14,831 nt of DNA from a virus, in UHGV virus genome UHGV-0322133; one strand, written 5' to 3'. The notes under the pieces were generated by a model that searched no databases, was not told the DNA's origin, and saw nothing but the letters and a program-made list of their open reading frames with translations. This document shows, in pieces, positions 8,453-14,831 of this stretch. Numbering within the stretch: position 1 is the stretch's first letter; every line of letters begins with the position of its first letter. The translations under genes and the position numbers were made by a program.

Positions 8453-8741
8453 TAAGCGTGAAATATCGCAAATAATCGCAAGTTTTACTGATGAAGATTA
8501 CGAGCGAATCAACAGTGAAGTTGATCGCCTCTGCAAACGTTGCGACCCAATAAGCGAAATGCTTCGCTCATATAAACCAGATGAACACACTAAGGACGCT
8601 ATCGACTGGCTGGAAGATGATGACTGTAACTATCAGGAAAAAGCCGCTGAATGGTTCTGGGATGCAATAACCGAAAGAGTTAAGGCTGAATATGCCTTCG
8701 CAATATTCAAACGCAGACACATTTTTGGAGAAGCAGCATGA
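8430..8741 (+). CDS. Hypothetical acidic protein (103 aa) at the gam-equivalent position
   Basis: The SD is AAGGAGAAAG. It lies directly upstream of recT and overlaps it by 4 nt. It shows no similarity to lambda Gam as I recall it. Confidence 0.65.
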   Translation: MMILTLNDKREISQIIASFTDEDYERINSEVDRLCKRCDPISEMLRSYKPDEHTKDAIDWLEDDDCNYQEKAAEWFWDAITERVKAEYAFAIFKRRHIFGEAA

Positions 8742-9649
8742 GCAATATCGTTGAATTCGTTAAACAGCAGGAGCAGTTATTCTGCGGAGCATTGACTGAA
8801 CAGACGGTGACATGGGCTAAGGAAAGCCAGTTTGCAATTCAGTATTTCCAGAAAAACGATTACCTGGCTAAAACAGCACTGGCAAACCCAACCAGCGCAC
8901 AGAACGCCATCATCAATGTTGCGGCGATCGGTATCACCTTAAACCCGGCTAGCAAACTGGCTTATCTGGTTCCGCGCGACGGCATGGTGTGCCTTGATAT
9001 CAGTTATATGGGATTGCTCCATATTGCAATGGAGTCTGGTGTTATCTCATGGGGTCAGGCAAAACTTGTTCATGCTAACGATACCTATGAGTCAAACGGG
9101 CTTGATAAAGCACCAACCCATAAATACAACGCCTTCGGTGATCGTGGTGATATCGTTGGCGTTTACTGCACAGTTAAGACGCCAGCAGGTGATTATCTAA
9201 CGGAAGAGATGAGTCTGGCTGAAATTGAGGCTGTAAGGAAAACAAGCAAGGCGGCATTCAGCGATAAAGGACCATGGGTAAATCACTGGAATGAGATGGC
9301 GCGAAAGACGGTCGTAAAGCGTGCAAGCAAGTATTGGCCTAAGGCATCACGTCTTGATAGTGCTATTCACGTACTAAACGAAGAAGAAGGTGTGTGGACT
9401 GAACCAGTTATGCCGCACAAATCAGAGGAATATATCCGCGAAGATGAACGGAAACGCCAGCAGGAAATTATGGAAAAAGCACAACTTCTTTGTGATGAAA
9501 TGGCTCAGGCAGAAAACATGGATGATTTGAAGCGATATTTTGCAGAAGCATATCGCCTGACATCTGGAATGAAATTGCAGCAGAACGTACAAGCCATTTA
9601 CATAGAATGCAAAGCGAAACTGGAGGTTGCCAGTGAGCAAACTATATGA
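8738..9649 (+). CDS. recT: RecT-family single-strand annealing recombinase (303 aa)
   Basis: The segment GPWVNHWNEMARKTVVKRASKYWP parallels Rac RecT (GPWVTHWEEMAKKTAIRRLFKYLP). An earlier segment, NPASKLAYLVPRDG...ISYMGL, also fits. A helical C-terminal extension of about 85 aa has no RecT counterpart that I can recall. Confidence 0.9.
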   Translation: MSNIVEFVKQQEQLFCGALTEQTVTWAKESQFAIQYFQKNDYLAKTALANPTSAQNAIINVAAIGITLNPASKLAYLVPRDGMVCLDISYMGLLHIAMESGVISWGQAKLVHANDTYESNGLDKAPTHKYNAFGDRGDIVGVYCTVKTPAGDYLTEEMSLAEIEAVRKTSKAAFSDKGPWVNHWNEMARKTVVKRASKYWPKASRLDSAIHVLNEEEGVWTEPVMPHKSEEYIREDERKRQQEIMEKAQLLCDEMAQAENMDDLKRYFAEAYRLTSGMKLQQNVQAIYIECKAKLEVASEQTI

Positions 9650-10622: not shown

Positions 10623-11038
10623 AGCAAATGACACTAATTGAGATGGATGGATTTCTGAAAGGTAAATGCATCCCACGAGATTTAAAGGTTAACGAAACAA
10701 ACGCTGAATATCTGGTGCGTAAATTTGCTGAAGCGGAGGCCAAGTGCGCGGCGCTGGCAGCGGAGAATGAGCTGGCTCGTAAAGCAGTTCAGGCATTCTG
10801 CGATGTTGTTGGCGACAACACAGAGGTTATCTGCGAGGAGGTTGGGAGAGATGGCGTTCTGGTTATTTTGGAGGCCATGAAGGCAACAGGAAATATGCCT
10901 GCCACCGATGCTTTCCTGGCTGAAGTACGGGCGCAGGGGGTAGAGATGATGCGCGAACATCCATCAATCAAACTTTGCTCTTTGACGCACATATGTGACG
11001 AGTTAGCCGCCCAGATTCGCAAAGGAGGCAACCAGTGA
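10619..11038 (+). CDS. Ea22-like family protein (139 aa)
   Basis: The likely start is ATG 10619 ([11 protein letters not shown]...). The protein has a coiled-coil segment, and its C-terminal [18 protein letters not shown]....AAQIRKGG resembles the conserved C-terminus of ead/Ea22-like prophage proteins. Confidence 0.6.
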
Positions 11039-11679
11039 GCAACCGTTTTTACATGATGTGCTCGCGTGAAACTGTGGGTAATAACGCTTCATTCCATTGC
11101 CATAACGGCAATGGTTACAGTTCTAATATCGATCGCGCTCATGTTTACACGCTGGAAGAAGCCCAAAAAGCCTGGAATTGTGGTCGAGATATCGATCAGC
11201 CTGTTTGCGCTGATAGCGTGGATGCAATGGCTGTGTGGCACGTTGATTGCCAGTACATCCCTACAGAAAGCCTGATTGAGCCAGATTGTACTGCGTATGT
11301 GGCCTACAAAAAAGGTAGCTGGAACGGCAACGATGTTTACTGGCTTCAACATGGTGGATTGCCAACAGATGACTTCAGTAAAGCGACCATCTTTAGCGTC
11401 GCCAACAAAAACGAACCAGGAATAGTTTGGTTGCCATTTTCCATTGCTGATGCAGCAAAGCGCCGGACGTTCAATATCAATAACTTTAACCGCAGAACAA
11501 TGGTTCAGGGCGCAGGTTTGGTCATGCCTGACTGGTTGAAAGAGCAGAACAGAAGAAAGAAGTCGCGAAGCGGGAAGGTGCGTTGGAATTGTCCGCATTG
11601 CGGAAAAATAACTTGGCAGTACAGCCCATATGATTTTGAAGGCTGTAGTGATTACAACTGTGAAGGATGGCGAGAATGA
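11035..11679 (+). CDS. Hypothetical Cys/Trp-rich protein with a C-terminal zinc-ribbon-like motif (214 aa)
   Basis: The GTG start lies 6 nt after AAAGGAGG and overlaps the upstream stop. The C-terminus reads WNCPHCGKITWQYSPYDFEGCSDYNCEGW (CxxC ... C....C). Confidence 0.7.
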   Translation: MSNRFYMMCSRETVGNNASFHCHNGNGYSSNIDRAHVYTLEEAQKAWNCGRDIDQPVCADSVDAMAVWHVDCQYIPTESLIEPDCTAYVAYKKGSWNGNDVYWLQHGGLPTDDFSKATIFSVANKNEPGIVWLPFSIADAAKRRTFNINNFNRRTMVQGAGLVMPDWLKEQNRRKKSRSGKVRWNCPHCGKITWQYSPYDFEGCSDYNCEGWRE

Positions 11680-12371
11680 CAATTGACTATCAGGTACTGC
11701 GTGAGGCGGCAGAACGTGCAATGCCGGCAATGGAACGCCTGTTAATGTTGCCAGCTGATGATGACTTGTTAAGTGAACAGGAACTTAAAGATTACGGTGT
11801 GGATATTGATGCGCTCAACGCCTTCAAATTTCTGACCGGACCAGAAACCGTGCTGGCACTGCTGGATGAACGGGAAAGAAACCTGCAATACATCAAAAGC
11901 CGCGATCAGGAGAACGAGGATATTGCGCTAACGGTAGGGAAGCTGCGCGTTGAGCTTGAAGCAGCAAAATCAAAACTCAACGAGCAGCGTGAGTATTACG
12001 AAGGTGTTATCTCGGATGGAAGTAAGCGTATTGCTGAACTGGAGAAAAGCGAAGAGCAACTCATTAACGAGCGTGACCATGCTGAGTCTGCTTTAGCTGA
12101 TATGTACTTTGCAGCAACCGGGGATAGGCCGGAGTGGAGTAACTGGTTCGGCTTTTCAAATGCCGTAGATGCCGTGGTTGACAGAATTGCTGATTTAGAA
12201 GCTAAACAGCCATCACCAGTAGTACCGGAAGGACTGGTTAAAGCAGTGTGCTTCTATGAACAGGTTAAGCGTGAAAATCCGCCAGTCGAAACCGGAGCAT
12301 GGAAAGACGCTGTTGACTGGGTTCTCGAAGAGGCTTGTCAGGCTGTAAACATTGGCATCAAAGGAGAGTGA
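11676..12371 (+). CDS. Ead/Ea22-like family coiled-coil protein (231 aa; alternative start at 11667)
   Basis: MTIDYQVLREAAERA... and ...VLALLDERERN... are typical of the Ea22-like N-region. There is a central coiled coil (LRVELEAAKSKLNEQRE...AELEKSEEQLINER). Confidence 0.7.
   Translation: MTIDYQVLREAAERAMPAMERLLMLPADDDLLSEQELKDYGVDIDALNAFKFLTGPETVLALLDERERNLQYIKSRDQENEDIALTVGKLRVELEAAKSKLNEQREYYEGVISDGSKRIAELEKSEEQLINERDHAESALADMYFAATGDRPEWSNWFGFSNAVDAVVDRIADLEAKQPSPVVPEGLVKAVCFYEQVKRENPPVETGAWKDAVDWVLEEACQAVNIGIKGE
12350..12371 (+). repeat. Left copy of a 22-nt direct repeat (cattGgcatcaaaggagagtga)
   Basis: It is identical at 21 of 22 positions to 12844-12865, with 17 nt exact (gcatcaaaggagagtga). 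It covers the last codons (..IKGE-stop) of the upstream gene and the SD of the next gene. Confidence 0.9.
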
Positions 12372-12373
12372 GA

Positions 12374-12865
12374 ATGCAAATTTCACCGGTTACTCTTCGT
12401 GTTGCGAAGGCGTTTATATCCAGACATCACCGACACAATAAACCACCTGTTGGGCATAAATTCAGCATTGGTCTGAGAAATGATGCCGGAGAATTGATAG
12501 GTGTGGCGACAGCTGGTAGACCTGTTGCACGACATTTGGACGATGGATTAACACTTGAAGTAAATCGCACATGTACCACAGGAGAACGCAACGCTAACAG
12601 CGCGCTTTATGGTGCTGTCTGGCGGGCAGCAAAAGCTATGGGTTATCAACGTTGTATTACGTACACCCAGGCAGATGAATCAGGAGCATCTCTTCGCGCA
12701 GCTGGTTTTGTTCGTGTGAAAGAGCTTCCTCCAAGAAAAAGCTGGGCGGAATCAAGCGTCGCCCTGCGGAGTAAACGCGATCCGGTCGGAAACGGTGGTG
12801 TTCCTCGTGTGCTTTGGGAAATCAGGAGAATGAGTACCACTGGCATTCGCATCAAAGGAGAGTGA
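12374..12865 (+). CDS. GNAT-like putative acyltransferase-fold protein (163 aa; I recall this family being annotated as XF1762-type prophage proteins)
   Basis: The start at ATG 12374 follows the SD AAAGGAGAG. The sequence is MQISPVTLRVAKAFISRHHRHNKPPVGHKFSIGLRNDAGELIGVATAGRPVARHLDDGLTLEVNRTCTTGERNANSALYGAVWRAAKAMGYQRCITYTQADESGASLRAAGF. Its order of strand/helix-like segments resembles GNAT beta4-alpha3-beta5-alpha4. There is no canonical R/Q-x-x-G-x-G/A motif. Confidence 0.6.
   Translation: MQISPVTLRVAKAFISRHHRHNKPPVGHKFSIGLRNDAGELIGVATAGRPVARHLDDGLTLEVNRTCTTGERNANSALYGAVWRAAKAMGYQRCITYTQADESGASLRAAGFVRVKELPPRKSWAESSVALRSKRDPVGNGGVPRVLWEIRRMSTTGIRIKGE
12844..12865 (+). repeat. Right copy of the 22-nt direct repeat (cattCgcatcaaaggagagtga)
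   Basis: See the left copy. This copy forms the last codons (..IKGE-stop) of the GNAT-like ORF and the SD of the zinc-ribbon ORF. Confidence 0.9.
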
Positions 12866-12866
12866 T

Positions 12867-13064
12867 ATGGATAAAAACACCACTGCTTACTGGAATCTGT
12901 CACTTGATACCGAATGCCCCAAATGCGGTCACAATTTCGATCTGCTTTGTGACGCTGATTTCTGGGAGTTTTCTGGAGCTAAACAGGCATGTGAAGAAAT
13001 AAAAGGTTACGAAACATGCTGTCCAGAATGTAACCATGAATTTAAAACAGATTTCGTGTATTGA
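12867..13064 (+). CDS. Small zinc-ribbon protein (65 aa)
   Basis: It has two CxxC pairs (CPKCGH ... CPECNH). It starts 1 nt after the GNAT-like stop and uses the SD within the repeat. Confidence 0.6.
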   Translation: MDKNTTAYWNLSLDTECPKCGHNFDLLCDADFWEFSGAKQACEEIKGYETCCPECNHEFKTDFVY

Positions 13065-13074
13065 GGCATAACAA

Positions 13075-13707
13075 ATGACCACTATTACCAGAGAACAGGC
13101 GCAGAAAATTATTGAAGCAGCCGATGAGGTTATTAGTGCGCTTGCCGGAACTAACGAGGATGTTCACCCTGGTAGCGATAACATGCTACGTCTGTGGGAT
13201 GACCTGAATGACCGTTACGCGCCCCCGGAAGTTGTGCGTGAGCTGGCACGAATTGCACTGGCATCACTGGAAGCAGAGCCTGTAAGCCAAACTTACAACT
13301 TGCCAGAATTAATCGAAGGCATGGAGGTTTCCATTGATGTAAGCACTTGTGATGCGGATTTAGGTAATCGCTATTTCGGTACCGTAACCGAGGCGTTAGA
13401 ACTTGATACAGCCAAGAATGGTTACATCCTCCTAGTTCAGGACGCAGAGCCAAACTTCGATATAAATGGCAACTCTCCGGTAATTCCGGATGGTTGGATA
13501 AGCTGTAGTGAGCGAATGCCGAAAAAGAATCAGAACGTACTTATTTCGGTGAATTTCGATAGTGATCTGGTTGAGCCGCTAATATGCTCCGCACGCTATA
13601 CCGGAAGTACCTTTCGGCGAGGACAAGCAACGATTAAGCCGGGTAATGGTATTGAGCAGGCAACTCACTGGATGCCGCTACCGGAACCGCCGCAGGAGGT
13701 AAAATGA
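13075..13707 (+). CDS. DUF551-domain protein (210 aa)
   Basis: The C-terminus WISCSERMPKKNQNVLIS...ATHWMPLPEPP fits the DUF551 pattern common in enterobacterial prophage early regions. Confidence 0.7.
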   Translation: MTTITREQAQKIIEAADEVISALAGTNEDVHPGSDNMLRLWDDLNDRYAPPEVVRELARIALASLEAEPVSQTYNLPELIEGMEVSIDVSTCDADLGNRYFGTVTEALELDTAKNGYILLVQDAEPNFDINGNSPVIPDGWISCSERMPKKNQNVLISVNFDSDLVEPLICSARYTGSTFRRGQATIKPGNGIEQATHWMPLPEPPQEVK

Positions 13708-13964
13708 TGGATGTAAAAGAGAAGGTTTTGCAGGTGATGCGTTCCCGTGCTGCCCTGCAAGAGAAAGCTCTCGGCGGGGAATATCCATTCACGATAGCAA
13801 CCTGGAATCTGCGGTTGGCAATGGAGAAGGAATTTCCTGATGAAGAATGGCGTTCGGCAGATTTGCGCAAAATTCTTATGGAGCTGGCTAAAGACGGAGC
13901 AGTATCCAAAGATACCTATGCCAGCCGGATTGGTCAGGCGGTATGGAGACTGGAGGTGCGGTAA
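13704..13964 (+). CDS. Hypothetical protein (86 aa), possibly winged-helix-like
   Basis: The SD is AGGAGG, and the ATG overlaps the upstream stop. I recognise no motif with confidence. Confidence 0.6.
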   Translation: MMDVKEKVLQVMRSRAALQEKALGGEYPFTIATWNLRLAMEKEFPDEEWRSADLRKILMELAKDGAVSKDTYASRIGQAVWRLEVR

Positions 13965-14000
13965 TGGCTAACCTGCAACTTGCCGTCAAAGGTGAATAAC

Positions 14001-14029
14001 AATCCTCGCACTCGCGGGGATTTCTTTTA
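14001..14029 (+). terminator. Rho-independent terminator (first of a tandem pair)
   Basis: aatcctcgc at 14001-14009 pairs with gcggggatt at 14014-14022 (one G-U pair, 4-nt loop), followed by TCTTTTAT. Confidence 0.55.
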
Positions 14030-14033
14030 TCTG

Positions 14034-14058
14034 AACTCGCTACGGCGAGTTTTGTTTT
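14034..14058 (+). terminator. Rho-independent terminator (second of the pair)
   Basis: aactcgc at 14034-14040 pairs with gcgagtt at 14045-14051, with a tacg loop, followed by TTGTTTT. Confidence 0.55.
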
Positions 14059-14070
14059 ATGGAGATGATT

Positions 14071-14370
14071 ATGGCCTGTTCAACATTCAACCCTTTAACG
14101 TTACAGAAATACCAGCCAGACCCTGAAGATTTATGCTCACTGTGTGGAGTAAATCATGGTAAAGCCGCCATGATCGAATGTAAGGACAAAATCCACATTT
14201 GCCTTAATTGCGTTGATGTCCTCGTTGATATCAAAAATGAGAGAGAAGATAAAAAGCGTAACGAGGCTATTCGCGCATTAGATTCATGGATGCGAGATGG
14301 GTATAGTGCTGCGCAAATTTATGACTTAGCAATATCAAAAGGCGAAATACCAGGTGTGCGAATCGAATAA
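14071..14370 (+). CDS. Hypothetical Cys-rich protein (99 aa from ATG 14071; in-frame ATGs also at 14059 and 14065)
   Basis: GGAG at 14061-14064 lies 6 nt before ATG 14071. The CSLCG ... CLNC motifs suggest a zinc-binding module. Confidence 0.6.
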   Translation: MACSTFNPLTLQKYQPDPEDLCSLCGVNHGKAAMIECKDKIHICLNCVDVLVDIKNEREDKKRNEAIRALDSWMRDGYSAAQIYDLAISKGEIPGVRIE

Positions 14371-14405
14371 GAAGCGCACTCAAGCATCTTTTGGAGAAAT
14401 CACTA

Positions 14406-14573
14406 ATGCACTTCCGAGTCACAGGTGAATGGAATGGAGAACCATTCAACAGAGTTATCGAAGCAGAGAACATCAACGACTGCTATGACCACTGGATGAT
14501 ATGGGCGCAGATAGCACATGCAGACGTAACCAATATTTGTATTGAAGAACTGAAAGAACACCAAGCCGCCTGA
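14406..14573 (+). CDS. Hypothetical small protein (55 aa)
   Basis: The internal ATG at 14406 follows GGAG. The translation is MHFRVTGEWNGEPFNRVIEAENINDCYDHWMIWAQIAHADVTNICIEELKEHQAA. Its stop codon sits in the loop of the terminator. Confidence 0.55.
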   Translation: MHFRVTGEWNGEPFNRVIEAENINDCYDHWMIWAQIAHADVTNICIEELKEHQAA

Positions 14574-14587
14574 TGGCGGTTTTTTAT
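14565..14587 (+). terminator. Rho-independent terminator
   Basis: gccgcc at 14565-14570 pairs with ggcggt at 14575-14580, with a tgat loop, followed by TTTTTTAT. Confidence 0.7.
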
Positions 14588-14630
14588 TGCCTGATTTGCA
14601 GGTTCGATTCCCTATTCGGAGATAGCACTC

Positions 14631-14831
14631 ATGCAACACGAACTACAACCTGATTCACTGGTTGATTTGAAATTCATCATGGCTGATACTGGCTTCGGTA
14701 AAACCTTCATCTATGACCGGATTAAGTCCGGCGACCTGCCAAAAGCCAAAGTTATCCACGGGCGAGCAAGATGGTTATATCGTGACCATTGTGAATTCAA
14801 AAATAAGCTCTTAAGCCGCGCCAATGGGTAA
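14631..14831 (+). CDS. xis: AlpA/Xis-family excisionase-type DNA-binding protein (66 aa)
   Basis: The segment LVDLKFIMADTGFGKTFIYDRIKSGDLPKAKVIHGRARWLYRDHCEFKNKL fits the AlpA/excisionase winged-helix pattern (..TG.s..tiY..i..G.fP.p.k.g.r..W....v..w). It sits at the distal end of the PL operon, so int is expected just beyond the window. Confidence 0.8.
   Translation: MQHELQPDSLVDLKFIMADTGFGKTFIYDRIKSGDLPKAKVIHGRARWLYRDHCEFKNKLLSRANG

Follow-up and report, generated by a model that had tools for sequence, protein, structure and literature searches.

The gene for the XF1762 protein is one of the ordinary cassettes that recombination shuffles in the early-left accessory region of lambdoid phages, and the closest characterised relative of the encoded protein is Mom of phage Mu. 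As a whole, the locus probably consists of a cassette exchanged at a conserved gene junction, which codes for a Mom-like enzyme presumed to act on nucleic acids, and of a separate zinc-ribbon cassette. The window, i.e. the complete stretch of 14,831 nucleotides that was analysed, comes from a P22-like/lambdoid phage and represents its early-left (exo-xis / ea) accessory region, which is N-antiterminated. It contains the following features:

8738–9649, plus strand: gene for a RecT-like single-strand annealing protein of the same early-left operon (PHROG 148, E 8.9e-92)
11667–12371, plus strand: Ead/Ea22-like gene (234 aa; Pfam Ead_Ea22, E 1.4e-34; PHROG 250 and 26213)
12350–12371, plus strand: left junction copy, the U2 allele ..AACATTGGCATCAAAGGAGAGTGA, coding for IGIKGE-stop and including the Shine-Dalgarno site of the next gene
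12374–12865, plus strand: Mom-like GNAT gene of the XF1762 family (163 aa; conserved domain from residue 1 to about 153)
12842–12865, plus strand: right junction copy, the common allele GGCATTCGCATCAAAGGAGAGTGA, a 24-mer found unchanged at the 3' end of hkaG in HK620
12867–13064, plus strand: zinc-ribbon-like CxxC...CxxC gene (65 aa, pI 4.35; phrog_4173), an independent cassette
13075–13707, plus strand: gene for a DUF551-domain protein (210 aa; Pfam DUF551, E 3.3e-21), which is the variable gene that follows in the accessory region

The 22-nt direct repeat, the 163-aa open reading frame and the 65-aa CxxC protein that starts one nucleotide after its stop codon, all of which had been described in the initial annotation, were confirmed. 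The two copies of the repeat, CATTGGCATCAAAGGAGAGTGA (12350–12371) and CATTCGCATCAAAGGAGAGTGA (12844–12865), are identical in 21 of the 22 positions and contain an exact core of 17 nt; the distance from start to start is 494 nt. A degenerate version of the 22-mer, allowing for up to three mismatches, matched no sites other than these two. In 200 dinucleotide shuffles, no match occurred, and a chance origin of the repeat was rejected. In each copy, an AAGGAG is located 6–7 nt ahead of the next start codon. The Ead/Ea22-like reading frame ends in ..IGIKGE* and the XF1762 reading frame in ..IRIKGE*. The two repeats are two alleles, the U2 and the common one, of a gene-junction sequence of about 24–30 nt. 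Its consensus is (GC)TGGCATTCGCATCAAAGGAGAGTGA-(T/G)-ATG, and the common layout is ..GGCATTCGCATCAAAGGAGAGTGA-N-ATG.

This junction sequence closes many unrelated reading frames of the region with G-I-(R-I)-K-G-E-stop and carries the Shine-Dalgarno site of the next, translationally coupled gene. The 17-mer core was detected in more than 120 IMG/VR contigs. Among 132 occurrences of the junction, at least 10 unrelated families of upstream tails and at least 15 unrelated families of downstream genes were found in 38 distinct upstream-by-downstream combinations; these counts are from the present analysis. Conservation spans about -30 to +4, and the flanks on either side are not conserved. The repeat is a general junction or linker sequence, which is not specific to the 494-bp cassette. 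The initial annotation had interpreted it as the footprint of a mobile module whose end copies the tail of the upstream gene, and had named, as evidence to the contrary, a 22-mer that recurs at numerous unrelated boundaries. Exactly such a distribution was found, with a 17- to 24-mer recurring at the tails and genes counted above. The interpretation as a cassette survives this finding, whereas a module-specific footprint, a copied upstream tail and a self-mobile unit do not agree with the 38 combinations.

An exact empty site of the cassette exists in E. coli KFu019 (locus L205), where one copy of the repeat is present and exactly 494 bp are missing. The initial annotation had suggested a search for genomes of precisely this kind and had proposed that the module was joined at a conserved gene boundary; both points are borne out by KFu019. 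Here, a U2 tail (141 of 150 nt identical), a single repeat copy of the U2 allele and the zinc-ribbon gene (191 of 198 nt identical) follow each other without interruption. It speaks against the cassette mechanism, on the other hand, that this is the only contiguous empty site for the U2/zinc-ribbon arrangement that was detected in 5,426 E. coli genomes. The homology with the empty site covers about 145 nt on the left side of the junction, and the last ~145 nt of the Ead/Ea22-like gene (about 12226–12371), which end in ..VNIGIKGE*, therefore constitute a separate C-terminal module, designated U2. The U2-D1 junction was found as well as the arrangement U2-XF1762-D1. Both hallmarks of lambdoid boundary cassettes are thus present: an end sequence shared by unrelated modules and a site at which presence and absence differ by a single copy.

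The exact flanking of the unit by direct repeats and the precise single-copy empty site would also be compatible with a self-mobile element, that is, a 494-bp unit with a transposition or site-specific mechanism of its own, with the repeats representing a target-site duplication or att sites. We consider this extremely improbable. The unit is a single reading frame without mobility genes and without a promoter of its own, and recombinase, transposase and terminal inverted repeats are all absent from it. Moreover, dozens of unrelated genes have this sequence at their borders, it is also present at insertion-free junctions, and its copies on the two sides of the unit represent distinct alleles (one of the U2 type, one of the common type) rather than one duplicated site. 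A target-site duplication was rejected in view of the generic nature of the repeat and the allelic difference of its copies.

Exchange of the cassette at the junction sequence would, in contrast, proceed by homologous recombination, because the same short sequence is present at many junctions. Recombination inside this sequence would allow for the insertion, deletion or swapping of whole genes in frame, and the 494-bp unit would be one cassette of this kind. The exchange may be catalysed by phage annealases such as the RecT-like protein encoded upstream. Homologous recombination at boundary sequences is an established proposal for lambdoid phages (Clark 2001, for HK620, and Susskind & Botstein 1978, both as cited in PMC3233612 and PMC2327257); these boundary sequences are, like the junction found here, short conserved gene-end sequences that are common to alternative modules and are exchanged by homologous recombination. 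It could also be that the junction is conserved by selection for translational coupling and that the joints were formed by illegitimate recombination. With its exact empty site and the 38 combinations, the locus is a clean natural example of lambdoid gene shuffling at a defined junction of about 24 nt, and the debate on boundary sequences versus illegitimate recombination becomes directly testable at one sequence.

RecT-like and Gam-like genes are located upstream of the XF1762 gene, and the content of the locus is otherwise ordinary for an accessory region. The GC content of the region is unremarkable and an Rfam search yielded zero matches. A consensus scan detected no sigma-70-like promoter in positions 11000–14831 (0 versus 5.9 expected) and no terminator 3' of the XF1762 gene; the only terminator-like match, inside the gene, is weak. 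By the measure of this consensus scan, a moron, which would be flanked by a promoter and a terminator of its own, was rejected.

The 163-aa protein was assigned to the XF1762 family with high significance (NCBIfam NF045478, 204.7 bits versus a cut-off of 50, E 5e-61), residues 3–136 covering positions 2–130 of the 143 profile positions. Identical or near-identical proteins from E. coli carry the same annotation in RefSeq. The family is large, with 5,663 matches that form 3,313 clusters at 50% identity, and occurs in Proteobacteria, Actinobacteria, Firmicutes and cyanophages. A full-text literature search for "XF1762" retrieved no paper. Most relatives end near ..WEIRR, whereas the E. coli lambdoid form has the same domain plus a tail of about 10 residues (~154–163, MSTTGIRIKGE), which is derived from the junction and poorly ordered. 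At the 5' end, the reading frame has an alternative in-frame GTG start at position 12368. The AF2 model shows a confident mixed alpha/beta GNAT fold (pLDDT 89.6), and a regular expression for the acetyl-CoA P-loop, [QR]xxGx[GA], did not match anywhere in the protein, in agreement with the earlier description of a GNAT-like reading frame that lacks this motif. Residues 119–144 form a loop of about 25 residues with low confidence (pLDDT 59–66), which contains a conserved W124. With a pI of 10.9, the protein is very basic.

The statement of the initial annotation that no function is established for the family was too strong, because its closest characterised relative is Mu Mom. Mom (PDB 8bv8) is a GNAT whose donor is Gly-tRNA(Gly) and whose acceptor is N6 of adenine in dsDNA; the transfer of glycine yields carbamoylmethyl-adenine, which serves restriction evasion (PMC13219725). 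That Mom modifies DNA with an amino acid from a charged tRNA was shown in 2026, and R111, S124, R151 and D149 are essential (PMC13219725). Judged by profile comparisons, the XF1762 protein appears to be a shortened sister of Mom. Both belong to PHROG 1384, the match of the XF1762 protein stopping at position 159 of the 245 profile positions and that of Mom reaching 218. The score with the Pfam family Mom (PF25680) is 22.4 bits (E 1.1e-4, residues 2–110 only) and below the gathering threshold of 27.1; 32 of 43 XF1762 family members match this profile with E<0.01. PDB sequence searches with the single protein and with the family profile retrieved neither Mom nor any GNAT, and the relationship is therefore visible only by means of the PHROG and Pfam profiles and by fold comparison.

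An hhalign comparison of the two family profiles, which is of modest significance (E 9e-4, probability only 23%), pairs R65, N73/S76 and H19 of the XF1762 protein with R111, N121/S124 and H58 of Mom, respectively. A comparison with the single Mom sequence is weak (E 0.025–0.04). In an alignment of 43 sequences, R65 is invariant and S76 is conserved to at least 90%. The beta4-alpha3 loop reads TGERNANS and resembles the DMPRNSES of Mom. D101 aligns with D149 of Mom but varies across the family (D, N, S, G, E). The RCGR segment of Mom falls into a gap of the XF1762 profile, and R151 is absent. Compared to the 241 residues of Mom, the protein is 78 residues shorter, and the HTH-like insertion of Mom (~175–209, between the last strands) is replaced by the low-confidence loop of about 25 residues. 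Both R151 and this insertion are needed for momylation (PMC13219725). The two genes also differ in expression: the XF1762 gene is an early gene of the pL operon, whereas Mom is produced late and under tight control by Com/Dam.

We infer that the XF1762 enzyme modifies nucleic acid. Its reaction, early in infection, would be the attachment of an acyl or aminoacyl group to a base of a nucleic acid; the donor may be a charged tRNA as in Mom, and the transfer might serve anti-restriction or host takeover. A more specific proposal, which we regard as a tentative possibility, is that XF1762 proteins are a very large phage-borne family of "mini-Mom" enzymes, for which a charged tRNA would replace acyl-CoA as the donor and which, being devoid of the HTH-like insertion, would introduce a different and undescribed base modification into DNA or RNA at an early stage of infection. 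The Mom family proper is much smaller than the XF1762 family, which keeps the key Arg/Ser pair. If XF1762 proteins are active on nucleic acids, they would represent an unrecognised modification system in many temperate phages, among them common prophages of E. coli, and would be relevant to restriction, to phage engineering and to artefacts in sequencing.

It is unlikely, although somewhat less so than the alternatives discussed below, that the cassette mechanism holds and the substrate of the enzyme is a protein or a small molecule. The enzyme would then be an ordinary acyl-CoA N-acyltransferase, which might, for example, acetylate proteins in the course of host takeover. Matches with more than 200 GNAT acetyltransferases are almost as good as that with Mom, the DNA-binding HTH-like insertion and R151 are missing, and homologues in M. 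abscessus prophages are annotated simply as "acetyltransferase". However, the motif that binds the CoA pyrophosphate is lacking, the relationship at the sequence level is specifically with Mom, the catalytic Arg/Ser pair is common to both proteins, and the pI is very high. Furthermore, the neighbourhoods are rich in genes of DNA metabolism: distant homologues adjoin genes for a DNA methylase, ParB, PD-(D/E)XK and RusA, where only adjacent genes on the same strand were considered as neighbours in the diverse genomes. In other phages, a DpdA/TGT-like DNA-modification gene occupies the same junction slot.

The block consisting of the U2 tail, the XF1762 gene and an 87-aa gene also exists in P2-like phages, in the hotspot between replication gene A and portal gene Q. 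This hotspot often contains defence genes. The location is consistent with a role in prophage defence or lysogenic conversion, in which the enzyme would protect the lysogen against other phages and not serve the lytic growth of its own phage. Such a role is nevertheless distinctly improbable for the gene studied here, which lies in a lambdoid pL operon and, having no promoter of its own, should be silent in the lysogen. In addition, PADLOC gave no match for the protein, and its relative Mom is a counter-defence enzyme (PMC13219725).

The 65-aa zinc-ribbon gene is a separate cassette and no partner of the XF1762 gene. In the initial annotation, the 163-aa protein had been compared, as one of two options, with TacT/AtaT-like toxins that acetylate aminoacyl-tRNA, and the zinc-ribbon protein would be its partner or antidote. 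Several properties fit this proposal, namely the GNAT fold and the toxin-like size of the enzyme, the binding of charged tRNA by its relative Mom (PMC13219725), the acidic nature of the 65-aa protein (pI 4.35) as opposed to the basic enzyme (pI 10.9), and the translational coupling of the two genes. Their linkage is not maintained, however: the zinc-ribbon gene directly follows the XF1762 gene in only 1 of 77 other loci. In these 77 XF1762 loci, the neighbours vary, with at least 12 families on the upstream side and at least 8 on the downstream side. The zinc-ribbon gene occurs without XF1762 in L205 and upstream of it, with one gene in between, in L206; its family comprises 18 clusters, compared to the 3,313 clusters of the XF1762 family. 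TacT, AtaT and ItaT, which are type II toxin-antitoxin enzymes, resemble the XF1762 protein in their GNAT fold and in size and, like Mom, bind aminoacyl-tRNA. In contrast, they use acetyl-CoA by means of the canonical motif and are accompanied by an antitoxin in a fixed adjacent position, whereas the XF1762 protein has neither this motif nor a fixed neighbour, and a PADLOC match is missing. A toxin with its antidote is therefore very improbable. In the AF2 model of the 65-aa protein, which is of low confidence (pLDDT 61.9), hairpins are formed around both CxxC pairs, CPKC (residues 17–20) and CPEC (residues 52–55).

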